A DNA stretch of 64,000 bases from the NCBI GenBank assembly GCA_029260795.1, contig JAJDCO010000053.1, positions 68,414 to 132,413 of the forward strand, given 5' to 3'. Position 1 is the first letter of the stretch, and each line of letters starts with the position of its first letter. The notes beneath the pieces are model-generated. The model did not search any database, was not told the DNA's origin, and worked only from the letters and a program-made list of their open reading frames with translations. Source of the stretch: Planctomycetota bacterium (GTDB lineage Bacteria; Planctomycetota; OFTM77). A program made the translations under genes and the position numbers. This document shows positions 5,221 through 42,286 of the stretch, in pieces.

Positions 5221-5718
5221 ATGCAGAGCAAGATACTGGACGCGGCACTCCAGCCACTGCTGGCGATGTGTGCCCGCGCTCTGGACATCAGCGATCAGGC
5301 CTACGACATCCGCCCATCGAGCGGTGGTTGGAAGTCGGGGCGCCAGGTTGTGGTCTCCTTCTCGGGAGACCTGCAGGGCCAGCTCGCCGTGACCTTCTGC
5401 GGATCGGTGGCCGATCAGATCGTGCGCTGGGTGGTTGATGTCGTCGGCGATCCGGAGCTCGCGACCGATCCTGTCTCGAAGAGTGCCTTGCGCCTCAGCG
5501 GGATGGCCGAGTTCACCAATCAGCTCTTCGAGCAAGCGGCTGCACACTTTGCTGACCAAGGCGTGAAGATCAGCGCTCAGCAGCCCGAGGTACATGACGG
5601 CAACGAGTTCCATCCGACGCCGACCAACCTGGTCGCCCGTCGACATCTTCCCGCTGGGGAGGGGGAAGTGATCCTCGAGCTCTCGGCGAATCGCCTCGAC
5701 GACGACGTGCAGCTTTGA
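5221..5718 (+). CDS. CheX/CheC-like chemotaxis phosphatase family protein (tentative)
   Basis: 165-aa ORF; the ATG is preceded by GAAAGGA. The layout resembles CheX: VVSFSGDLQGQLAVTF, then SGMAEFTNQLFEQAA, then ISAQQPEV. The assignment is by motif recollection only. Confidence 0.5.
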   Translation: MQSKILDAALQPLLAMCARALDISDQAYDIRPSSGGWKSGRQVVVSFSGDLQGQLAVTFCGSVADQIVRWVVDVVGDPELATDPVSKSALRLSGMAEFTNQLFEQAAAHFADQGVKISAQQPEVHDGNEFHPTPTNLVARRHLPAGEGEVILELSANRLDDDVQL

Positions 5719-6442
5719 GGGGATCTCGACGATCGCCCGCCAGCTGGAAAGGAACGGCGCAAGGGGTGACGCTCGGGAAAAGGGGAAGAAGGAGAGAGTA
5801 GGTGCGTTTTACGCCCCTGGGGCAGGGACAACCCTTGGCCGTTGGTTCTTGGGACTAGCCCAAGAGCCCCGCAAACCGCGTCGACCTGGCGAATACCGAG
5901 CGGTCTCGAAGCCGCTCCGGGATCGCACGGAGGGCCCGGTTTGTTACTTCGATTCCCGATTAAATCGGGTCCGAAAGTCGGACAGATCGAACGCGCTAAT
6001 GGACCGGTGCTTAGGACGACGTGAACGTCCTTTTGAGATTCTGCCGACGCGCGATCTTTGTCACCCCGACATCCGGAGAGGCGAGGGGCCGCGAGCCCGA
6101 ATCGCCAGCGGCCGCCTGCTCGGGCAGAAAGGCTCGTGGCCTCGAGGGCACGCGAGGCAGGGGCCTGAGTCCGACTTGTCGGCAAGTCGAGCGCAGAAGC
6201 TGGCACCGAAGTCACGGCGTCGTGCGCAGCGTCACGGCGCGTCGTACCTCTCATGGAGAGCGGTCCTCGCGGTGCCCGTTGACTCAGCGCCTGTCGGTGC
6301 GGACGCACCGCGATGGCGCTCGCGTGCACGCATGGCCTGACGTTGAGCTTGCGGTGCTCGACGAGGGGAATGAGGGCGTGACGCCGGTTGGCCTGTCTGG
6401 CCGTGTGTCCGCTCGGCTCGGTGCGGACGCACTCTGTCGTCC

Positions 6443-16200: not shown

Positions 16201-16686
16201 TCACCGGTCAGTCTTGTCCATCTGCGCGAAGGTCACGACGTGGCCGCCTGGTGTCCAGATGGCGATCTCGGTGCTGCCATAGAAGGTCTTGCGCTCTTCG
16301 AAGATGTGCCGGTCGCCGGCGAGTGCCTTTCGAAAGGGCTCGAGATCTTCGACCTCGATGAAGAGAGCGGTCGTTTTGATCGCTTCCGCGACGGCCGGGA
16401 CGTCCTTTTCGACGCTTGCCTTGGTCTGGATCATCAGCTCGATGCCGTCGCGCTCCATCATCACGAACCAGAGCCGATCGCCTTCGGGCACCTCGGCCGT
16501 CTTCTTGAATCCGAGCCGATCGACCCACAGCTCGAGGCAGGGCTCGATCGTGTCGACGACCAGGATGGGGGTCATGCGCTTGAGCTTCATGGCGGGTTTC
16601 TCCGTCGCCTGGGTTGCGTCTTGAAGTGAGAAGCCGAGCGTACCCGCCAGCAGCCCGGCGGTCGCGATCCAGTGGGACCATTTCAT
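16201..16686 (-). CDS. VOC (glyoxalase/bleomycin-resistance) family protein with signal peptide
   Basis: Only the last 161 aa of the 485-aa track ORF look real, starting at the ATG at 16686 (MKWSHWIATAGLLAGTLG...). The VOC-like core is MTPILVVDTIEPCLELWVDRLGF...GIELMIQ...TEIAIWTPGGHVVTFAQ. Confidence 0.75.
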   Translation of the reverse strand: MKWSHWIATAGLLAGTLGFSLQDATQATEKPAMKLKRMTPILVVDTIEPCLELWVDRLGFKKTAEVPEGDRLWFVMMERDGIELMIQTKASVEKDVPAVAEAIKTTALFIEVEDLEPFRKALAGDRHIFEERKTFYGSTEIAIWTPGGHVVTFAQMDKTDR

Positions 16687-16782
16687 CGAGTCGCTCCAGT
16701 GAAGGTGAAGGGATTCTCTCTGACGACTATCGATTGCAACGAATGCGGTCGCCTGCGTCTTGGAAGAATGGAACATGAAAAG

Positions 16783-17052
16783 GGAACCGCGCCGCGAAGA
16801 GAAGGCCCAGGGAACCGCGCCGCGAAGCAAGCGGCCGTGGGCAGGCGTCCGCTCATGAAGCGCTGACCGCGAGCGAAGCAAGCGGCACCGGCTCTCGAAC
16901 GGAGGAGGTCGCCCATGGCGTCCCCCAAAGCAAGGGCCCCGGAGCGGCGAAGGCCCGAAGGAACCGCGCCGCGAAGCAAGCGGCCCAAGACCGATCGCCG
17001 CCTCATCCAGCGACAACCGCGAGCGAAGCAAGCGGCACCAGACCGATCGCCT
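16783..17052. repeat. intergenic direct-repeat cluster (two ~80-bp units plus degenerate copies)
   Basis: ggaaccgcgccgcgaagcaagcggcc occurs at 16811 and 16960, with a shorter copy at 16783. accgcgagcgaagcaagcggcacc occurs at 16866 and 17016. agaccgatcgcc occurs twice. The blocks 16811-16889 and 16960-17039 align along their length. Confidence 0.8.
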
Positions 17053-17780
17053 CAGTCGCGTTCCCGCAACCACTCGGTGGGCGAGACTCCGGCGAGCTCG
17101 CGGCAGTCGAGGCAGAAGTGGGGCTGGTCGGCATAGCCGGACGCCAGCGCGACACCGACCAGATCGGTCGGTCGCTTCTCGAGCATCACGAGCGCCGCCT
17201 GCAAGCGATAGATGCGCTGGAGCTGCTTGGGGCCGAAGCCCACCTGACTCCGAAAGAGCCGGCTCAGGTGTTGACGGGTGACGTTCAGCTCCGAGGCCAC
17301 GTGGTCGATCGACACTCCGCCGCGATCCAGCCTGCGACGGGCGGCTGCCACGCGCGGGTCGACCGTTCGTTCCCGAGCGCGCTCGGCCAGCGAGGTCATC
17401 CAGCGCTCGATGCGCTGCGCCGGAGGCGCATCGACGACGGGATGCCAGGCCAGGCTCGGTGCCAGATCCGCCAGGGGCACCGTGCGATCGGTGAGCTCGT
17501 GGGCGGGGAGGCCCAGGATAGCGGCCGCACCACCGGGGCGAAATCGCACCGCCAACAGATCGATCGCACTCGAGGTCTCGATGACCTGAGCGCGCGTCAT
17601 CGCTCCGACGACGCGGGGATCGGCTTGAGCCTCGAGGTCGATGAGGATGTCGATGCATCCGTCGGGCAAGACCCGGACCCGGCTCGGGCCTTCATCGGCG
17701 GCGGCGCGATGTGTCCAAAAGCACTCGACGAAGGGCGCCAGGATCGGTGGCGGGGCGAGCTCGCGGTAGCCGCCGCTCAA
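17052..17780 (-). CDS. AraC family transcriptional regulator
   Basis: 242 aa with a C-terminal AraC-type HTH (HVASELNVTRQHLSRLFRSQVGFGPKQLQRIYRLQAAL ... GYADQPHF). The start ATG overlaps the ileS stop (ATGA at 17777-17780). Confidence 0.85.
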   Translation of the reverse strand: MSGGYRELAPPPILAPFVECFWTHRAAADEGPSRVRVLPDGCIDILIDLEAQADPRVVGAMTRAQVIETSSAIDLLAVRFRPGGAAAILGLPAHELTDRTVPLADLAPSLAWHPVVDAPPAQRIERWMTSLAERARERTVDPRVAAARRRLDRGGVSIDHVASELNVTRQHLSRLFRSQVGFGPKQLQRIYRLQAALVMLEKRPTDLVGVALASGYADQPHFCLDCRELAGVSPTEWLRERD

Positions 17781-27260: not shown

Positions 27261-28250
27261 TCAGTCGGCCCTTCGGAATGCGTCGAGCAGCTCGTGCACG
27301 GCGCGCGTCGGGGGCAGACGCTGCTCTATGACGGCGGCTTCGACCTCGGCCAGGCGGCTCTTGACTCGCGGGTGCTGCCGGAATGCCGTCAAGAGTGACT
27401 GGTCGATGAGGGACCACATCCAGCTCTTGAGCTGATCGCGCCGGAGCGTCTCGAGGCCGTCGGCTGCGGTCAGAGCGGCGTGGTGCTCCTCGACCGCCTG
27501 CCAGAGCTCGTCGAGTCCGGACCCCGTTTGGGCACTGACCAGAAGCGTGCGCGGTCGCCAGGTGTCGTGACGCGGGCGCAGGTACCGCAGCGCGGCGCCA
27601 TACTCGCGCGCCGCCTCCCGCGCCAGCGGCAGCCGGTCGCCGTCGGACTTGTTGATGGCGAGGATGTCGGCGAGCTCGAGGATGCCGCGCTTGATGCCTT
27701 GGAGCTCGTCACCAGCACCGGGGAGGAGCAGCACCAGGAAGCAGTCGACCATGTCCGCGACGACGGTCTCCGACTGTCCAACACCGACCGTCTCAACGAT
27801 CACGACGTCGAAGCCGGCCGCTTCGCAGAGCAGCAGCGTCTCCCGCGTGCGCCGGGCCACGCCCCCGAGTGAAGTGGCGCTCGGAGAAGGCCGGATGAAG
27901 GCGTGGGGGTGTTGGGCGAGCTCGTGCATGCGACTCTTGTCGCCGAGGATGCTCCCGCCACTGAGCTGACTGGAGGGGTCGACGGCGAGGACAGCGACCT
28001 TCAGGTCGCGAGCGACGAGCCGGTTGCCGAGCGCCTCGATGAGCGTGCTCTTGCCAACGCCCGGAACGCCCGAGATGCCGAGGCGGCGAGAGCCGCCGGT
28101 GTGAGGCAGCAGGCGCGTCAGGACCTCCTGGGCGAGAGCCTGATCGGACGCCTGGCGGCTCTCGATCAAGGTGATGGCCCGCGCGAGCACGGTTCGATCG
28201 CCGCTGCGGACACCGTCGATGTATTGATCGATCGAGAGCCGATTCGCCAT
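27261..28250 (-). CDS. meaB: methylmalonyl-CoA mutase-associated G-protein chaperone MeaB/ArgK
   Basis: P-loop GVPGVGKSTL, Walker B/switch VIVETVGVGQSE and the NKxD motif AINKSD. At 329 aa the size is typical of MeaB. Confidence 0.92.
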   Translation of the reverse strand: MANRLSIDQYIDGVRSGDRTVLARAITLIESRQASDQALAQEVLTRLLPHTGGSRRLGISGVPGVGKSTLIEALGNRLVARDLKVAVLAVDPSSQLSGGSILGDKSRMHELAQHPHAFIRPSPSATSLGGVARRTRETLLLCEAAGFDVVIVETVGVGQSETVVADMVDCFLVLLLPGAGDELQGIKRGILELADILAINKSDGDRLPLAREAAREYGAALRYLRPRHDTWRPRTLLVSAQTGSGLDELWQAVEEHHAALTAADGLETLRRDQLKSWMWSLIDQSLLTAFRQHPRVKSRLAEVEAAVIEQRLPPTRAVHELLDAFRRAD

Positions 28251-28659: not shown

Positions 28660-30788
<2,129 letters not shown>

Positions 30789-30792
<4 letters not shown>

Positions 30793-32585
30793 CGGGGCAC
30801 CTTTCCGATCCGAGGCACGCCGACGGCCGCGAGGAGCTCGGTGAGCTGCTCCACGACATCGGCTCCCGCGAAGAGGAAGTCCGTCACGCCGGCCGAGCGC
30901 AGGGCCGCTTCGCGGTCAGCCGGACGCCCAGCCCAACCGAGCCTTCGCGGCGCGTTCGCCGCCAGCGCCCGCACGAGCGCTTCGCCATGGGTCGCCTGCC
31001 GCGCGTCGCTGGCACACACGACGACGAGAGCGGCTTCGCTCGCCCGCGCCGCGTCCGCCAGCGCTTCGGCAGCGGCCTCGGGTTCCAACGCGTCGCTGCC
31101 CTCGTGCTCCTCGACGTCGAATCCGCCCGCGATGAGGAGCTGTCGTGTCCACGTCGAGCGAGGCCCGTACTCGGAGCGAGGCCCCAGGTTGGCCAAGAAC
31201 GCGAGCGGCGGATTGGTCTGGGCCGCCTCCCGGAGCGCCTCGAACGGGGCCGCATCGGGTAGAAGAGTGAACGGCTCGATCGCCGGCCCGGACGCCCGAC
31301 GCTCTGTGGCCTTCGACGGCCACCTCGGCCGCGGTGGCCTCTCGAGGAGCTCTTCGCCCGCGAGCGGGTACTCGCTGACGCCGGTCAGCGGATCCTGTCG
31401 CCGCGCGATGCGCTGAGCGCGTTCCCGAGCGCTGGCGTCTACCCGTGTGCGAACCCATCCGGAGACCAGCGCTTCGGTCATGCCGCCAGCGGACTCGATC
31501 TGTTGGAATACCGCCCAGGCCTCTCGCGCCAGTTGGTCGGTCAGTGTCTCGATGGCGAACGAGCCTCGGGCCGGATCGGCAACGCGATCGACGTGTCCTT
31601 CGCGAGCCAGCACGAGCTGCGTGTTGCGGGCCAGGCGCAGTCCCAGCGTGCTCGGCTCGCCGAGGCGCTCATCGAAGGGGCGACAGACGATCGAGTCGGC
31701 GCCGCCGACGGCGGCCGCGAAGACGGCATGGCTGCTGCGCAGGACATTCACCCACGGATCGAATCGGCTGAGCATGCGGCGCGAGGTGTTTGCGTGGAGG
31801 ATCACGGCCGACTCTTGCTGCCATCCTGCGAAGAGCTTTGCGAGCAGCCAGCGCGCCGCGCGAAGCTTCGCGGCTTCGAGGAGCACGCCGGAGCTCACCT
31901 CGAGCGCGATCTCCATCGGTGCCTCGGCGATCTCGTCCGGCCGAGCGGCCAGGTAGGCGTGCGCGGTGGCGAGGCAAAATGCGAGCTCTTGAACGGCGTT
32001 GGAGCCGGCCTCGTGGTAGGGAGCGGTGTCGACGCGAAGGAGCGCGACTTTCCCGTCCGTCTCGAGCAGCGGGGCGAGCTCGCGCCACTCGGCCGTCAGC
32101 TCCTTCCACGAGCCTGGCAGTGCACCCGAGCGAGCGAAGGCGCCGAGCGGATCGGCCCCGAGGCGCAGCTCGGCCGGCGCGATCCCGGCTTCTCGCAAGG
32201 CCGCGACCCACGGCAGCGGCTCGGCGCCCGCTTGCAACGACAGTCCGACGAGGTCTCCGGGCAAGCGCCGAAGCGAGTCTGACGAGGCGCGCAGCTCTGC
32301 TGTTCGCAAGTGCAGGCGCGTCGGCTCGTCACCGAGGGCGGCGGCGATGCGAGCGGGATCGGCGAATGCGCGCTCTTCCCACAGAGCCCAGCCCGTGTCC
32401 CGCGGCAATGGTGGCGCCGAATCCGGGCGCTCGGCATACAGCGGCGCGAGGGAGACGCCTTCGACCATCGGCGTGCCGAGAGTGCGCTCGAAGTCCCAAC
32501 CCTCGAGCTCCGCCTCGACACGACTCCGCCACGACTCGAAGTCGACCGGTGGGAATCCCTCGGGCATGTGCCTATCTCGTCGCAT
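30789..32585 (-). CDS. mutA: methylmalonyl-CoA mutase small (beta) subunit
   Basis: ~598 aa, homologous in layout to the large subunit but lacking the DxHxxG His. It sits immediately upstream of mutB. Start candidates are TTG 32591, ATG 32585 and ATG 32567 ([13 protein letters not shown]). Confidence 0.85.
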
Positions 32586-33217
32586 CACCAACCCCGATCA
32601 CTCACAATCGAGCGCAATCGCGACTCGAAGTCCGAGAATGCCGACACCGCCCTGAGCGGTGAGTAGTCATCGATCAGGTCAGCTAGCCGGCGGACGCGTT
32701 GTGGAATGCGGAGTTTCTCGAGACGCCTTCCAGAGAGCTCGGATGCTCGTCGGATCAATGAATGGAGGACATCCTTTGGATCGGCGAGTTCCTCGACTCT
32801 GCTGATCTGCGGTATTTCCAAGTGAACTGCTCCGTTCGGGTTGTCAGCCGCTGTTCGAATCGCGAGCTCGTCAAACAAGAACCATGCCTCGCTCATACGG
32901 ACTGGGACAACGCCGCAGATCGGTTGAGAATCTGCAATCCGCGCGCAGGCATTCTCGACCTCGATAAGGCGTTGCTCACGATCAACTGATTCTGCGTCTC
33001 GATGGACCAGAAGGAGATCGCAAGGATACAGTCTCAGGAGCCGACTGACTCGGTCCTCAAGGCTTCGTGTCCCTGTCTTCGGGACGAGAAACGGATTCGC
33101 CCACTCTCCCACGGCAGGGCGTGAGCAGATTGACCGCAGGAGCCAATCGATTGGCTGCAACAGTATCTCGTCGGAGCTGCCGTCGGCAATAAGGGTGAAG
33201 CGGAGGGCCTCCTCCAT
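32585..33217 (-). CDS. small TOPRIM-like protein (DUF4276-like), partner of the upstream ATPase
   Basis: 210 aa. The N-terminal acidic motif is LIADGSSDEILL, which compares with the VEGxTE/VEGxSD of TOPRIM-type families. Central motif: LLLVHRDAES. Later motif: VVPVRMSEAWFLFDE, which compares with the EAL/EAW motif of DUF4276. The ATG lies 2 nt after the ATPase TAG. Its own TGA overlaps the mutA ATG by 1 nt. Local G+C is visibly lower than in the flanks. Confidence 0.55.
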   Translation of the reverse strand: MEEALRFTLIADGSSDEILLQPIDWLLRSICSRPAVGEWANPFLVPKTGTRSLEDRVSRLLRLYPCDLLLVHRDAESVDREQRLIEVENACARIADSQPICGVVPVRMSEAWFLFDELAIRTAADNPNGAVHLEIPQISRVEELADPKDVLHSLIRRASELSGRRLEKLRIPQRVRRLADLIDDYSPLRAVSAFSDFESRLRSIVSDRGW

Positions 33218-33219
33218 CC

Positions 33220-34689
33220 CTATGCCTCGTCCCTAAACAGAAGTAGTTGCTCGACTTTGTTGGCGACGGAGGGGTCGGTGCTGTTGCCAGAAGCGGGTGT
33301 CGCCTGTGTCGCTCTGAGGCGATTACCTTCGAGGTATGATCGGACTGCTCCGAGTGAGATCGTTCTCAGTGGATGCGACCGCGATCTCCAACTGTCTGGC
33401 ATGCTCGAAAAAGTGAGTCCTCGCGTCCTCTCGAGTTTTCCCGAGCTCGATTCGAGCTTTGCAAAGAGCAGGTCCTGTGCCGACACAAGGCCCGCAAGCC
33501 CAGGTGAATGCGTATTGACGATTACTTGTCGGAGTGGATTGTCCGGGCCGATTGGTGATGTCGCATCCACAGCGATGTCGTGAATCAAACTGAGCATCGC
33601 CTCCAATCGCTCAGGGTGAATCCCGTTCTCCGGCTCCTCAAGGCAAATCAGGCCTCCCTCAGTGGGATCCTGCTCCAAGACAGCCAGTGCCAGCATTCGG
33701 AGCGTTCCATCGGATAGCGCGCTGGCGGGCAGTTCGACCCCGTGCCGATCCAAGAGCATTACAGTGAGGAGCTTTCGCTCGTCGTCGCGGTCGACTCGAA
33801 TCGTCCTCACGTCGTCAACCAGCTCGGCAACACGATTTGCGATGGCGGTGTAGACATCGCCGCGGCCAGACTTGCCGCTTCCATTCTCTTGCGCCAGTCG
33901 GTGAAGAGTTGATGGGAGGTTTTTTCCAGTCGGTCCAATCCGAGCAGGCGCATCGAAGCGGTCGGGCAGGTTCAAAGCGCTTGGCTCGAGGTGAAGTTGG
34001 CGCCAACTCTGCATCTCTCGCCGGACGAGTAGGGCCGTGCGGCTCTCGGTCGCGTTCCTGGCGGATGAGAGTACTGTTCTTGGGAGATGAGCCAGCGGAA
34101 ACTCAGGAGGTCGTCCACCACGTTTGGAGTCGCCGGTCTCAGTCTTTCGGTCGAAATGAATCCTGACGATACCCTTGTCTCTTTGAGTAGATATGAATGG
34201 AGTGGTTCGCGTTGGTCGGCCCACTACCGACTCGAACCAGTCTCGTGTGAAAGCAAAGCCCAGTGATTTCTTGGCCTCGCCTTTGGGGACGTAGCTCAGT
34301 GCTTCATTCTCGATTTGAAGTGAGCCTCTCAGGGCGTCGTCGGTTGGATCTCGGTACTTGATCTCGAGTTCGTACCTGACGCAGGTGGCGCTTGCCTGAG
34401 CACGTTGACCAAAGTCATCAACGCTTTGAGCCGGGATGAGCATTTCGGCCGCAAGGCTCATTCGGCGATCGCCGCCGAATGTGAACAGATTCTGGATCTC
34501 GCTTCCCCCACGGACTCGAGCTGCCGCTTCAATTAAGGGGTGGTCGGCGAGATGGCGAAGGAGCTCGATTGCATCAAAGAGATTCGATTTGCCAACGCCG
34601 TTGGCTCCTGCAATGCAGGAGAACGGTCCGAATCTCACGTCGACGTCGACGAGATTCTTGAACCCTCTGACTGTCAATCGAGTCAACAT
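33220..34689 (-). CDS. ABC/SMC-type (AAA_15/AAA_21-like) ATPase
   Basis: 489 aa. Walker A is GANGVGKSN, the ABC signature is LSDGTLRMLAL, Walker B/D-loop is LICLEEPENGIHP and the H-loop is VNTHSP. The N-terminus MLTRLTVRGFKNL is typical of RecF/SMC-like ATPases. The start lies 9 nt after the icmF stop, with GAGGA in the spacer. Confidence 0.8.
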   Translation of the reverse strand: MLTRLTVRGFKNLVDVDVRFGPFSCIAGANGVGKSNLFDAIELLRHLADHPLIEAAARVRGGSEIQNLFTFGGDRRMSLAAEMLIPAQSVDDFGQRAQASATCVRYELEIKYRDPTDDALRGSLQIENEALSYVPKGEAKKSLGFAFTRDWFESVVGRPTRTTPFISTQRDKGIVRIHFDRKTETGDSKRGGRPPEFPLAHLPRTVLSSARNATESRTALLVRREMQSWRQLHLEPSALNLPDRFDAPARIGPTGKNLPSTLHRLAQENGSGKSGRGDVYTAIANRVAELVDDVRTIRVDRDDERKLLTVMLLDRHGVELPASALSDGTLRMLALAVLEQDPTEGGLICLEEPENGIHPERLEAMLSLIHDIAVDATSPIGPDNPLRQVIVNTHSPGLAGLVSAQDLLFAKLESSSGKLERTRGLTFSSMPDSWRSRSHPLRTISLGAVRSYLEGNRLRATQATPASGNSTDPSVANKVEQLLLFRDEA

Positions 34690-34698
34690 GCATCGTCC

Positions 34699-37600
34699 TC
34701 ACATGTTGCGGCGATACTGGCCGCCGACCTGGTAGAGCGCGTGGGAGATCTGGCCGAGCGAGCAGACCTGGCAGACTTCCATCAAGGCTTCGAAGAGGTT
34801 TCCATTCTCGACGGCGGTGCGTTGGAGCGCGGTGAGGAGATCGGCCGAGCGCTCGGCGTTGCGCTGCTGGAATGCGTTCTTGGAATCGATCGCATACTGC
34901 TTCTCCTCGGTCGTCGACCGAATGACCTCCTCGGGGACGATGGTCGGCGAGCCTTTCGGGTCGAGGAAGGTGTTCACGCCGATGATCGGCAGCTCACCGG
35001 TGTGCTTGAGCGACTCGTAGAGCAGCGACTCCTCTTGGATCTTGCTGCGCTGATACATGCGCTCCATGGCGCCGAGCACGCCGCCTCTCTCCGACAAGCT
35101 TCGGAACTCGGTGAGGACGGACTCTTCGACCAGGTCGGTGAGCTCCTCGATGATGAAGGCGCCCTGAAGCGGGTTCTCGTTCTTGGTCAGCCCATGCTCT
35201 TTGTTGATGATGAGCTGGATGGCGAGCGCGCGGCGCACGCTCTCCTCGGTGGGTGTGGTGATCGCTTCGTCGTAGGCATTCGTGTGGAGCGAGTTGCAGT
35301 TGTCGTAGAGCGCGGTCAAGGCCTGAAGCGTCGTTCGGATGTCGTTGAAGGCGATCTCTTGAGCGTGCAGGCTGCGGCCCGAGGTCTGAATGTGGTACTT
35401 GAGCTTCTGCGAGCGAGCGTTGCCGCCGTAGACGCTCCTCATCGCCTTCGCCCAGAGGCGGCGCGCGACGCGTCCGATCACCGAGTACTCGGGATCCATC
35501 CCGTTCGAGAAGAAGAACGAGAGGTTGGGTGCGAAGGCGTCGATCGGCATCCCACGCGAGAGGTAGTACTCGACGAAGGTGAAGCCGTTGGCGAGGGTGA
35601 GGGCGAGTTGGGTGATCGGGTTGGCTCCCGCCTCGGCGATGTGATAGCCCGAGATCGACACCGAGTAGAAGTTCCTCACCTCGTGCTCGATGAAGTACTG
35701 CTGAATGTCGCCCATCATCCGCAGCGCGAACTCGGTCGAGAAGATGCAGGTGTTTTGGGCCTGGTCTTCTTTGAGGATGTCGGCTTGCACCGTGCCGCGC
35801 ACGCGCTGCAGGGTCTCGGCCTTGATGTTCTCGTAGGCCTCACGGGGCAGCACCTCGTGCCCGCTGACGCCGAGTAGCAAGAGCCCCAGGCCGTCGTTGC
35901 CCTCCGGCAGATCGCCTTGGTAGCGCGGTCGCGGCAGGTCTCGCTCGCGGTAGAGCGAGTCGATCAGGCGGTCGGCCGCTTCGACTTGACCCTTCTCGTG
36001 GAGGTAGCGCTCGCACTGCTGATCGATGGCCGCGTTGAGGAAGAACCCCAGCAGCATGGGCGCCGGACCGTTGATCGTCATCGAGACCGAGGTCTTCGCA
36101 TCAGCGAGCTCGAATCCCGAGTAGAGCTTCTTGGCGTCGTCGACGGTGCAGATGCTGACGCCCGAGTTGCCGACCTTTCCATAGATGTCCGGACGCTGGT
36201 CGGGATCCTCGCCGTAGAGCGTGACCGAGTCGAACGCGGTCGAGAGACGCTTGGCCGGCAGGTTGTGTGAGAGGTAGTGGAAGCGCTTGTTCGTGCGCTC
36301 CGGTCCACCCTCGCCGGCGAACATGCGGGCCGGATCCTCGCCTTGACGCTTGAGCGGGAACACGCCGGCCGTGTAGGGGAAGTGCCCGGGCGTGTTCTCG
36401 CGCAGACGCCAGGTCAGCACGTCACCCCAGTCCTCGTAGCGCGGCAAGGCGACCTTGGGGATCGTCAAGCCCGACAGCGTGTGAGTATGGAGATCCTGCT
36501 CGATGACCTTGTCTCGCACCTCGAAGCGGTACTTGTCGGCGCGGTAACGGCGCTTGACCTCGGGCCACTCTCGGAGCAATTGGCGGCAGTCGGGGTCGAG
36601 CCGGCCCTCGAGCTCGTGGTAGAGGTCCACGAGCTCGGCGAGGTAGTCGGGCTCCCCGGCGGCGTGCTCGACGACGTGGACCAGCGAGTCGTCTTCGGAC
36701 TCGACCACCTCGATCTCGCGTCGACCGACGCGGCTGCGCAAGAGCTCGATCGTGCCGTGGAGCTGGTAGAGGCGACGCGCTAGTGTGCTTTGCTCCGTGA
36801 CGAAGCGCTCGTACTTCTCGGAGGCTTCGGCGATCTCTTCGAGGTAGCGGACACGCTGAGGCGGGATGATGCTCTGCTTGCCGCTCGCCTCGTCCGACAC
36901 CTCGAGGTTCGAGTGGAGTGGCGCGCCGGTGCGCTCGGCGATCAAGTCGATCAGGCGCCGGTAGAGGCGATGGGTGCCCGGATCGTTGAACTGGGCCGCG
37001 ATCGTGCCGTAGACGGGCAGGCTCTCGGTGTCGGTGTCGAAGAGCTGCCGGTTGCGCTGGTACTGCTTCCGGACGTCGCGCAGTGCGTCGAGTGAGCCGC
37101 GCTTGTCGAACTTGTTGATCGCGATGACGTCGGCAAAGTCGAGCATGTCGATCTTCTCGAGCTGCGTGGCGGCGCCGTACTCGGCCGTCATCACGTACAG
37201 TGACACGTCGCTGTGCTCGGTGATCTCGGTGTCCGACTGCCCGATGCCCGACGTCTCGACGATCACGAGATCGAAGCCCGCCGCCTTACAGATGTCGATG
37301 GCGCTCTGCACTTCGCGGCTCAGCGCGAGGTTGGCTTGGCGGGTCGCCAGGGAGCGCATGTAGACCCGCGGGTCGTGGATGGAGTTCATGCGGATGCGAT
37401 CGCCCAAGAGCGCACCTCCGGAGCGGCGCTTCGAAGGGTCGACCGAGATGACCGCGATCGTCTTGTCGTCGAAGTCGAGCAGGAAGCGGCGCACCAGCTC
37501 GTCGACCAACGACGACTTGCCCGAGCCGCCGGTGCCCGTGATGCCGAGCACCGGAACGACCTGACCGTTCGTCAGGTGTCGCACACGATCGAGCAGCTCG

Positions 37601-38142
37601 TCCGAGTCGTCGGGATGGTTCTCGGTCACCGACACCAAGCGCGCGATCGCCTGCGCGTCGCGCTGGCTCAGCTTTTGGACCTCGCCGTTGACCGGTGCTT
37701 CGGTCGTCGGGAAGTCGCACTGTGCAAGGAGGTCGTTGATCATGCCCTGCAGGCCCATGGCGCGGCCGTCGTCGGGCGTGTAGATACGCGAGATGCCGTA
37801 GGCGTGCAGCTCCTCGACCTCGTGCGGATGGATCGTTCCGCCGCCGCCGCCGAAGATCTTGATGTTCGCGCCACGCTCCTCGAGCAGATCGCGCATGTAC
37901 TTGAAGTACTCGACGTGACCGCCCTGGTAAGACGTGATGGCGATGCCTTGAGCGTCTTCTTGGATGGCACAGTCGACGATCTCGGCGACCGAGCGGTTGT
38001 GCCCCAAGTGAATCACCTCTGCGCCGGATGCTTGCAGGATGCGGCGCATGATGTTGATGGCAGCGTCGTGTCCGTCGAAGAGCGCTGCGGCCGTGACGAT
38101 GCGGATCGGGTTCTTCGGGGTGTAGGCTTCGGAGAGTCCCAT
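34699..38142 (-). CDS. icmF: fused isobutyryl-CoA mutase IcmF (B12 domain, MeaB-like GTPase, mutase barrel)
   Basis: 1147 aa. The N-terminal B12 domain carries [11 protein letters not shown]. The G-domain motifs are [24 protein letters not shown] and AINKFD. The C-terminal ~600 aa form the acyl-CoA mutase substrate domain. Confidence 0.9.
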
Positions 38143-40361: not shown

Positions 40362-41603
40362 TCAAAGGAAGAAATCCTCACGCTCGCCGAGCGGCTCGAT
40401 CGCCTCGAGCTTCTCCGGATGCTCGATCAGGTCTTCGATGAACCAGTTGGCCGGGTTGTAGAGGCAGGTCACCTCGCGGCACTCGTGGGTGGCATCGAAG
40501 CTATGAATGAGCTGGGCGACGGCCTTCTTGGTCTCGACGAAGTTCTCCTCGCCGGCATAGGCGTCCTTGTTGCCCATGCTGGCCTTGGGCACGTGCCGGT
40601 AGACGGGGCAGTTGAAGACCCCGAACGGGCTGAGCACCTGGCGAAAGAACTGCATGTGGCAGTTCTTGGGCTGCTTGGTGAAGTCGCGATACGTCTTCGA
40701 CTCGAAGACGCGCAGATTGGTCGACTCGACGACGGCGAAGCTGTCGGTGGCGAGCTCCTTGGCCTGGTCGACTTCCACCCGAATGCGGGCGATCACGTCG
40801 TCGAACCCGGACCACGAGTCGTCCATGCCGACCATCTCGGCGTTGTTCTCTTCGGCCCGCACCAGGAACGGCTTCAACGAGATGTAGTCGAACTGGTGGT
40901 CGCGGGCGAGGCGAGTGGCGCCCACGATCTCGTGGATGTTCTCGACGATCTGGGTGTCGTTCGTGAAGGCACCCTTCCACGTGATGATGAACGAGAACCC
41001 CATCCGCAGGTTGGGATTGACGGCCTTGATCTTCGGCACTCCGGCACAGATCTCTTCGAGGGAGATCGGCTGACGGGGCTTGTGCATCGCCTGGAACGTG
41101 GGATCGGTGCCGCTATCGAGGCTGAGCCGCACCCAATCGTGGGGACCAAAGAGGTGTGCCACTTCCTGGATGCGGTCGAGACGGCTACCGTTGCTGACGA
41201 CCGCGATATGCAGGTCGCGCTCCTTCAAGAAGCGCACCACCTCGGTGAACTTCGGGTGCACGGTCGGCTCGCCGCCGCCGATCAAGATGACCGAGCGCAT
41301 CCCCTTCTTCCACATCAGGTCGAGGGACTCGAGCAACTTGTCGTAGTCGTAACGGACACCCTTGTTGAGGATGTCGTAGTCGACGCAATGGTCGCAGGCG
41401 AAGTTGCAGGCCGTCGTGAGATCGAGGTTGATCGACACCGGAGCGGCATCGGGGCCGCGCTCGAAGTAGTCCTCCGGCCGCTCGCTGGAGCGGAGCTTTG
41501 CTTGCCACAGGACGTAGTCCTTGAGGCCGTCCCAAAGGGAGGGCTGGCGGAGCTTGCTTCCGAAGTCGTGGATGTTCGCGAGCTTTGTCGCCGACTCGCT
41601 CAT
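40362..41603 (-). CDS. radical SAM enzyme, unassigned subfamily, Cys-rich C-terminal extension
   Basis: 413 aa; the ATG is preceded by GAGAGG. It has CNFACDHC (CX3CX2C) at ~aa 76-83 and a GGGEPT SAM-binding motif. Additional Cys residues lie in the C-terminal 80 aa (CHMQ..NCPVY..ECREVTC). Confidence 0.8.
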   Translation of the reverse strand: MSESATKLANIHDFGSKLRQPSLWDGLKDYVLWQAKLRSSERPEDYFERGPDAAPVSINLDLTTACNFACDHCVDYDILNKGVRYDYDKLLESLDLMWKKGMRSVILIGGGEPTVHPKFTEVVRFLKERDLHIAVVSNGSRLDRIQEVAHLFGPHDWVRLSLDSGTDPTFQAMHKPRQPISLEEICAGVPKIKAVNPNLRMGFSFIITWKGAFTNDTQIVENIHEIVGATRLARDHQFDYISLKPFLVRAEENNAEMVGMDDSWSGFDDVIARIRVEVDQAKELATDSFAVVESTNLRVFESKTYRDFTKQPKNCHMQFFRQVLSPFGVFNCPVYRHVPKASMGNKDAYAGEENFVETKKAVAQLIHSFDATHECREVTCLYNPANWFIEDLIEHPEKLEAIEPLGEREDFFL

Positions 41604-41677
41604 GCGATCTACCTCTCGTCCAATGGGGAAACGAGCGACTCTAACCGTCTAACGGCTGCTTTTCCAATGGCTTCCCG

Positions 41678-42286
41678 TCATTGTCCCCAGCCGCTAGCAT
41701 CGACCAGTCGACAGATCAGATGCCCGATCAGGAGGTGGCATTCTTGGATGCGTGCCGTCTCGTCCGACGGAATGACGAAGGCCTCGTCGGCGAGCTCGGC
41801 CAGCGGTCCACCGGCTCCGCCGGCGAGAGCGATCACACGTCCGCCGATCTCCTGGGCGAGGCGGGCTGCCTTGAGAACGTTGGGCGACTTGCCGCTCGTG
41901 CTGATGGCGATGAGGAGATCGCCTGGCTTCATCAAGGCCTGGACCTGGCGCGCGAAGACGTCTTCGTAGCTGTAGTCGTTCGACACGCAAGTCAAGATGC
42001 TCGTGTCGACGGTGAGCGCGATGGCCGGCAAGCCGCGGCGTTCCACTTGATAGCGTCCGACGAACTCGGCGGCGATGTGCTGCGCGTCCGCGGCGCTACC
42101 ACCGTTGCCGCAGAGATAGAGCCTGCCGCCCGCGGCGAAGCAAGAGACGATCGCGTCGGCGACCGCGGCGATCTGCTCGCGGTACCGTTCGAGCGTCGCT
42201 TCCACGGCCGCATGATGGCGCGCCCGCGCCTCCTCGATGATCTCGAGGGCCTGGGCCACGTCCAGATGAGAAGCGGGCGTCGCCAT
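41678..42286 (-). CDS. SIS-domain sugar-phosphate isomerase (GmhA/DiaA-like)
   Basis: 202 aa from the ATG at 42286 (MATPASHLD). The motifs CGNGGSAADAQHIAAEF and AISTSGKSPNV are typical of sedoheptulose-7-phosphate isomerase-type SIS proteins. Confidence 0.8.
   Translation of the reverse strand: MATPASHLDVAQALEIIEEARARHHAAVEATLERYREQIAAVADAIVSCFAAGGRLYLCGNGGSAADAQHIAAEFVGRYQVERRGLPAIALTVDTSILTCVSNDYSYEDVFARQVQALMKPGDLLIAISTSGKSPNVLKAARLAQEIGGRVIALAGGAGGPLAELADEAFVIPSDETARIQECHLLIGHLICRLVDASGWGQ

Follow-up and report, generated by a model that had tools for sequence, protein, structure and literature searches.

The OLD and Gabija GajA proteins carry an ABC ATPase that is fused to a TOPRIM domain in one polypeptide, and Gabija also has the UvrD-like GajB. 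The TOPRIM fold is a four-stranded parallel sheet in the order 2-1-3-4, with an acidic residue (Glu) after β1 and a DxD-like motif after β3. Systems in which a TOPRIM protein accompanies an ABC ATPase have been treated as one group (PMC11464382), and the Mad3-Mad4 pair of MADS and the AbiL pair, each an ATPase with a DUF4276/RloB-type TOPRIM protein, have been placed together (PMC11464382, PMC12065111). DUF4276 itself has been placed in the Toprim superfamily (PMC12065111), and HEC-01B, the small component of the candidate anti-phage system HEC-01, has been reported to resemble TOPRIM proteins and to conserve a metal site (bioRxiv 10.1101/2024.01.29.577857). Here we analyzed two adjacent genes that lie between icmF and mutA in a 64,000-nucleotide stretch of a Planctomycetota bacterium (contig JAJDCO010000053.1, positions 68,414 to 132,413; hereafter the window, in which all coordinates below are counted). 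On balance, the pair is probably a horizontally acquired HEC-01-type module, in which a HEC-01A ABC ATPase is translationally coupled to HEC-01B, a DUF4276-like protein and probably a TOPRIM-type metal-dependent nuclease, and which is inserted exactly between the stop codon of icmF and the native icmF-mutA spacer. The original prediction, made from the letters of the window, had proposed a candidate PARIS/OLD-like defence system and could not tell whether the pair had already been catalogued.

Identity of the two proteins

The ATPase (489 aa) was matched most strongly by the PADLOC model of HEC-01A, PDLC04184 (E = 2.7e-93), its residues 1-398 aligning with model positions 1-390 of 464. Weaker PADLOC matches were obtained with AriA (3.9e-28, residues 211-398), GajA (about 1e-12, partial), mad3 and AbiLi. 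The Pfam search detected AAA_21 (4.4e-27) and AAA_15 (2.4e-16). With the NCBIfam models of MAD3, RecF, PtuA and Eco8 the ATPase stayed far under every cut-off: MAD3 (NF047739) gave 148.6 bits against a cut-off of 420, PtuA 22 bits against 500, and RecF (TIGR00611) 31.2 bits against 172, the last covering the P-loop region only. The sequence motifs quoted in the original prediction (GANGVGKSN, LSDGTLRML, LICLEEPENGIHP and VNTHSP in the ATPase, and ADGSSDE, HRDAES and SEAWFLF in the small protein) were all located. In the ATPase, Walker A covers G28-S35, the ABC signature L325-S-D-G328, the Walker B-like motif L350-E-E-P-E354 and the H-loop T393-H-S395. Walker A, the signature, the LEEPE Walker B and the H-loop are invariant across an alignment of 43 homologues, which are 476-513 aa long, and the window copy keeps all of them. 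The AlphaFold2 (AF2) model of the ATPase had a mean predicted local distance difference test score (pLDDT) of 86, and its closest solved folds in Foldseek were PtuA of the Septu and retron systems (about 4e-13) and the Thermus OLD protein 6p74 (1e-11), followed by SMC heads.

The C-terminal part of the ATPase, approximately residues 400-489 (33223-33520), lies beyond both the AAA_21 and the HEC-01A core models and is predicted to be structured. These about 90 residues are conserved within the subfamily, with G447 and Y452 invariant, and they may form a docking region for the small protein.

Also the small protein (210 aa; homologues 208-220 aa) was matched by a HEC-01 model, HEC-01B PDLC04210 (E = 2.6e-20), with residues 5-203 aligned to positions 4-207 of 217, and the same model matched all 49 aligned relatives. 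Models of AriB, DUF4435, Mad4 and AbiLii matched neither the small protein nor any of these 49 relatives. At E ≤ 0.1 the Pfam search found no match for the small protein, while 46 of the 49 relatives had weak matches to DUF4276 (best 2.3e-6), and relatives are annotated as "DUF4276 family protein" in some sources. As judged from these profile matches, the small protein is a divergent relative of DUF4276, not a formal member of it. NCBIfam and PHROGs searches with the small protein gave no matches, and a profile search of the PDB sequences gave only YacP/NYN (E = 0.38).

The family alignment of the small protein has three groups of invariant or nearly invariant residues, D12-G13-x-x-D16, H72-R73-D74-A-E76 and E110-A-W112; position 12 is conserved as D or E, and D74-x-E76 is conserved. 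The AF2 model (pLDDT 92) has a βαβαβαβ core, and the acidic clusters sit just after β1 (D12-G13-x-x-D16), β3 (H72-R73-D74-A-E76) and β4 (E110), the places at which a TOPRIM has its catalytic Glu and DxD. From the acidic motifs, the compatible topology and the literature on HEC-01B and DUF4276 we infer that the small protein is probably a TOPRIM-like nuclease.

With both protein models matched, the ABC ATPase again placed ahead of a small TOPRIM-like protein, and the two genes adjacent and co-oriented as in the definition of HEC-01 (here with a 2-nt spacer), the pair belongs by its profile matches to HEC-01, a candidate anti-phage system already present in PADLOC-DB v2, and is not a new kind of system. 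The question of whether the pair had been catalogued was thus answered by the PADLOC search. Also the original examples of HEC-01 were embedded in another gene cluster (Payne et al., bioRxiv 10.1101/2024.01.29.577857), but there the host cluster was the Hma defence system, whereas in the window it is a housekeeping B12 mutase operon. A further difference is that the HEC-01A model ends at residue 398 of the ATPase, the remaining C-terminal residues being specific to the subfamily.

PARIS resembles the window pair in that an AAA_15/21 ABC ATPase and its small nuclease partner are encoded by two separate genes, and by analogy it is likely a mechanistic template, with an ATPase scaffold that releases a nuclease on a trigger. 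As an identity it was ruled out: the AriA models match the window ATPase only partially and far less strongly than HEC-01A, and the small protein, about 23 kDa compared to about 35 kDa for AriB, has no AriB or DUF4435 match. The Mad3-Mad4 and AbiLi-AbiLii pairs likewise join an AAA_21-type ATPase to a small protein of the DUF4276/RloB class, but the MAD3 model stayed below its cut-off and the small protein matched neither mad4 nor AbiLii. MADS was rejected on these scores and on the neighbouring genes, which are mutase genes, with no methyltransferase or other MADS genes nearby. With OLD and GajA the pair shares the ABC ATPase fold and the association with a TOPRIM-class nuclease; class 1 OLD and Gabija were nevertheless rejected, as the ATPase and the small protein are two separate open reading frames (ORFs), the GajA match is only partial, and no helicase is present in the operon. 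PtuA is the nearest solved structure to the window ATPase, but its partner PtuB in the Septu and retron systems is an HNH nuclease and not a DUF4276/TOPRIM-like protein, and the PtuA model itself reached only a small fraction of its cut-off. Of the proposed PARIS/OLD-like defence system, the placement in the broad group of ABC ATPase/TOPRIM-like defence systems therefore held, while by their own models the pair is neither PARIS nor OLD/Gabija.

Insertion into the mutase operon

All genes of the operon lie on the minus strand, and in the direction of transcription the features are the following:

34699-38142, minus strand: icmF, 1147 aa, with the Pfam domains B12-binding, MeaB and MM_CoA_mutase (a fused acyl-CoA mutase with a MeaB-like GTPase)
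34690-34698, minus strand: 9-nt leader GGACGATGC between the icmF TGA and the ATPase ATG, read directly
33220-34689, minus strand: HEC-01A-type ABC ATPase, 489 aa, with PADLOC and Pfam matches
33218-33219, minus strand: 2-nt spacer GG that separates the ATPase TAG from the small-gene ATG
32585-33217, minus strand: HEC-01B-type small protein, 210 aa, with a PADLOC match; putatively TOPRIM-like
32568-32584, minus strand: 17-nt spacer TGCGACGAGATAGGCAC from the small-gene TGA to the probable mutA ATG
30789-32567, minus strand: mutA-like small subunit of the mutase, Pfam MM_CoA_mutase, gene call of 592 aa, probable start ATG 32565-32567
28660-30792, minus strand: mutB, from the Pfam domain scan
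27261-28250, minus strand: meaB, from the Pfam domain scan

The gene calls agreed with the original prediction of two co-oriented genes of 489 and 210 codons between icmF and mutA. Its two upstream junctions were also read directly from the sequence. The icmF-ATPase spacer is 9 nt long, and the Shine-Dalgarno-like GAGGA assigned to it begins within the icmF TGA and ends 6 nt ahead of the ATPase ATG. The ATPase TAG and the small-gene ATG are separated by GG, implying, from the spacing, that translation of the two would be coupled. For mutA there are three start candidates in one frame: TTG 32591, ATG 32583-32585, which forms TGATG with the small-gene stop, and ATG 32565-32567. An independent gene call (592 aa) sets the start at the third of these, 17 nt past the small-gene TGA, and the resulting N-terminus MPEGFPP parallels the MAASEEGFPP of the acidobacterial relative L096, in which the site is empty. 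The true start is thus probably ATG 32565-32567, and the TTG of the longest ORF and the ATG of TGATG are probably not real starts. The overlap of the small-gene stop with a mutA ATG, as first described, is present in the letters but probably non-functional, because both homology and the gene call favour the downstream ATG. Neither within the pair nor next to it was a promoter or terminator consensus detected, and the expression of the pair therefore presumably rides on the transcription of the host operon.

For comparison of the gene order, 80 icmF relatives were surveyed. In the closest relatives with the operon, L096 (Acidobacteriota), L097 (Planctomycetota) and L174, icmF is directly followed by mutA and mutB, and in L096 also by meaB after these. 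On this synteny, the pair has been inserted into an operon, icmF-mutA-mutB-meaB, that is otherwise uninterrupted, as had been proposed. After the icmF stop, L096 has TGCGAGCGG and, further on, the ATG of mutA; the window has the same TGA-TGCGA after the small-gene stop, and its spacer TGCGACGAGATAGGCAC is similar to the one that natively separates icmF from mutA in L096. Because this junction recurs there, the insert as read from the alignment is the 9-nt leader and the two ORFs only, 2,114 nt when one TGA is counted. Its upstream boundary is the icmF stop codon, and an uninterrupted allele would join the icmF TGA to TGCGACGAG.

The 5-nt identity TGATGCGA that the junction shares with L096 may be due to chance (about 1 in 1000), because a looser junction pattern recovered from the JGI metagenomes only the L096 lineage and one unrelated icmF. 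The exact junction pattern, occupied or empty, had no match in the JGI metagenomes, a collection from which the lineage of the window is absent. With mutA as the probe, the best match was about 44% identical and covered only part of the protein.

The composition of the pair differed from that of its neighbours. The overall G+C content was 0.57-0.58 in the pair and 0.64-0.71 in the flanking genes. At third codon positions (GC3) it was 0.60 in the ATPase gene and 0.62 in the small gene, compared to 0.88 in icmF, 0.81 in mutA, 0.87 in mutB and 0.85 in meaB. In the sliding profile GC3 was 0.82-0.94 in icmF up to the last window position, 0.56-0.64 in the pair and 0.74-0.86 in mutA, and the drop and the rise formed sharp steps precisely at the two gene borders of the pair. 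The pair is thus compositionally foreign, which supports a horizontally acquired origin, and the impression of an AT-richer, foreign-looking module gained from hand counts was borne out by the computed values. That the icmF 3' end had been transferred along with the pair was ruled out, since GC3 of icmF stays at 0.88-0.90 right up to the stop codon.

No tRNA was found across the whole window, no integrase, transposase or recombinase domains were found among the window ORFs scanned, and the search for flanking direct repeats or a target duplication around the pair gave only short matches at chance level, in agreement with the earlier reading. Three other ORFs of the window, at 40419-41969 (plus strand), 16201-17658 (minus strand) and 5577-6329 (minus strand), have low GC3 (0.62-0.66) and no Pfam match; these may be additional foreign genes or ORFs called in error.

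Distribution of the family and duplicated target ends

The small gene was directly preceded by the ATPase gene in all 80 genome loci encoding relatives of the small protein, and in 74 of 75 homologous loci the distance from the ATPase stop to the small-gene start was at most 10 nt. The 80 loci belong to Chloroflexota, Cyanobacteria, Planctomycetota, Poribacteria, Acidobacteriota, Verrucomicrobiota and other phyla. Identity to the closest homologues, which are taxonomically scattered, is only 50-57%. The family included 2,461 clusters at 50% identity in a profile search (E ≤ 0.001), and the top 150 matches of this search were all close family members, with no bridge to canonical DUF4276. Strict co-conservation with B12 mutases, which the original prediction had named as an argument for a metabolic role, was not observed: none of the 80 homologous loci had a B12 mutase within 10 kb.

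In ten of the loci the pair was solitary and co-oriented, 5-100 nt from unrelated housekeeping genes. The neighbours across the lineages included TsaD/KdtA, HisD, RNase HII/ThiI, ThrRS, DnaE, an E2 acyltransferase, RecJ, SbcC, an oxoprolinase, an ABC exporter/major facilitator superfamily transporter and a ComM-like protein. The neighbours differ by lineage and the pair usually sits alone and close to them; tight embedding is therefore a habit of the family and not peculiar to the window.

In one distant genome, Rudaea-like (L005/L006), the pair is likewise located just downstream of icmF. In this locus (L005, 5183-6535) an AbiEii-like (nucleotidyltransferase) insertion and the pair are separated by a 404-nt duplicate of the icmF 3' end (91% identity). 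Other cassettes were detected after the icmF stop in two further loci. In L104 (11357-12080) these encode a PBECR2-like protein with DUF2283 and then a DUF559/MTES_1575 protein, and they are followed by a 105-nt icmF 3'-end copy (89% identity). In L117 (11396-14211) they encode a DUF6000 protein and a PD-(D/E)XK Rpn-like protein, and are followed by copies of 177 and 90 nt (89% identity). A cassette together with a duplicated icmF 3' end was thus present in two of 77 loci selected by icmF, and in addition in L005, altogether in three phyla. From these alignments, the icmF 3' end looks like a recurrent insertion hotspot for small cassettes of the toxin or nuclease type. Such a landing site would explain the second icmF-adjacent pair without a functional link.

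Target-end copies were found also next to other genes. In L067 (6755-12640), a metagenome-assembled genome of Bryobacterales, the pair follows a ComM/YifB-like Mg-chelatase gene and is itself followed by two copies of the 3' end of that gene, 151 nt (100%) and 467 nt (92.5%) long. On the sequence, copies of the 3' end of the target gene delimit a cassette array in this locus. In L043 a 110-nt repeat with 98% identity flanks the pair, and in L055 similar segments of about 1.4 kb are located on either side of it. Flanking duplication was absent in 65 of the 75 homologous loci.

Possible function and competing explanations

As a defence module, the pair would function by analogy with PARIS, OLD, Gabija, AbiL and Mad3-Mad4 of MADS. 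An oligomer of the ATPase would hold or gate the small nuclease and would serve as both sensor and scaffold in detecting an infection cue. In an ATP-dependent step the small protein, as a metal-dependent nuclease and effector, would be set free or activated, and it would then cleave nucleic acid (tRNA or DNA), so that the infection is aborted. The experimental support for HEC-01 as a defence system is mixed, with one positive and one negative phage test: with one representative, E. coli B was protected from one or more of T4, T5 and T7 (PMC12881386), while the original representative failed to protect E. coli MG1655 from any of the phages tried (bioRxiv 10.1101/2024.01.29.577857). The negative test is one of the results that weigh against a HEC-01-type defence module with a TOPRIM nuclease. 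Another is the location of the family mostly among housekeeping genes and not in defence islands, which is atypical for defence and fits a selfish element equally well. Two more concern the small protein. Its sole match in a permissive Pfam search was DUF4276 (PF14103), at E = 0.26 and with 12 bits against a gathering threshold of 30.2 bits, and Foldseek searches of its AF2 model against PDB and BFVD gave no significant TOPRIM match (best E 0.06-0.1), returning generic flavodoxin-like sandwiches and a DnaG TOPRIM entry at E = 0.56. The earlier reading of this protein as DUF4276/TOPRIM-like is consequently retained in part, with the weak DUF4276 similarity, the compatible topology and the acidic motifs on its side, and the sub-threshold score and the structural search on the other.

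Among the other explanations, a selfish cassette is unlikely but the most serious to be considered. Such a cassette, whether of the addiction or of the homing-like type, would persist or spread to its own advantage, and any defence phenotype would be secondary. Its nuclease could, for example, cut alleles lacking the pair, or could be toxic once the ATPase is lost, and the cassette would embed itself without a promoter between conserved genes and use the transcription of the host operon. The seamless insert of two ORFs only, with no integrase, tRNA or repeats, agrees with this, as does the way in which the family sits singly, co-oriented and tightly between varied housekeeping genes in many phyla, with some insertions bracketed by copies of the target 3' end (L067, L043 and L055). 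Also the Pfam name of AAA_21 ties to AbiEii and type IV toxin-antitoxin toxins. However, most of the loci have no flanking duplication, and one HEC-01 representative did protect against phage (PMC12881386). Many bona fide defence systems are also addictive, so that both readings could hold together. That the pair is an inert or decaying passenger, left over from a larger mobile element, is considerably less probable. No mobility genes or scars remain and the composition has not been ameliorated, which suggests a recent arrival, but both ORFs are full length compared to their homologues, every invariant residue of the family is kept and the coupling signals are intact.

Explanations by cellular function fare worse still. 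A DNA repair or recombination module akin to RecF (ABC ATPase) with RecR (TOPRIM) would agree with the matches of the ATPase N-terminus to RecF/SMC/Rad50 P-loop regions, with the SMC heads among its structural neighbours, and with single relatives beside SbcC/Rad50 and beside RecJ. It is nonetheless very improbable given the low RecF score, the patchy, horizontally transferred distribution, the foreign composition, best-matching models that are defence candidates, and neighbours that differ in every lineage. That the pair assists the B12 mutases in metabolism, perhaps as a chaperone or repair factor of IcmF/MutAB, was suggested by the location within the operon and by the Rudaea-like pair that also follows icmF. 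This reading is effectively refuted: B12 mutases are missing from the surroundings of all 80 homologous loci, the pair is absent from the closest operons, MeaB and the G-domain of IcmF already supply the chaperone function, and the Rudaea-like case is better explained by the hotspot at the icmF 3' end. A HEC-01-type module thus remains the favoured reading of the window pair. As a wider conjecture, which as a whole we regard as rather improbable, a large HEC-01-like subfamily (about 2,400 clusters at 50% identity) would be a promoter-less cassette normally embedded precisely between conserved housekeeping genes; in many cases it would lie at a core gene's 3' end, which would sometimes be duplicated. 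Its expression would depend on the transcription of the host operon, the nuclease and ATPase that it encodes might aid insertion or retention in a homing-like or addictive manner, and the icmF stop would be one recurrent landing site among several.

In annotation, the pair should be labelled HEC-01-like, and not PARIS, OLD or a mutase accessory. HEC-01, catalogued but poorly validated, can sit seamlessly within a core metabolic operon, where tools that depend on defence islands or on a mobile-element context would not look. The window pair itself is a neat example of such embedding, and the most interesting leads are the cassette arrays at the 3' ends of icmF and comM together with the embedding seen across the family. 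Solitary, co-oriented insertion among housekeeping genes, with an occasional duplication of the target 3' end, may inform how small defence or selfish cassettes spread and are expressed.

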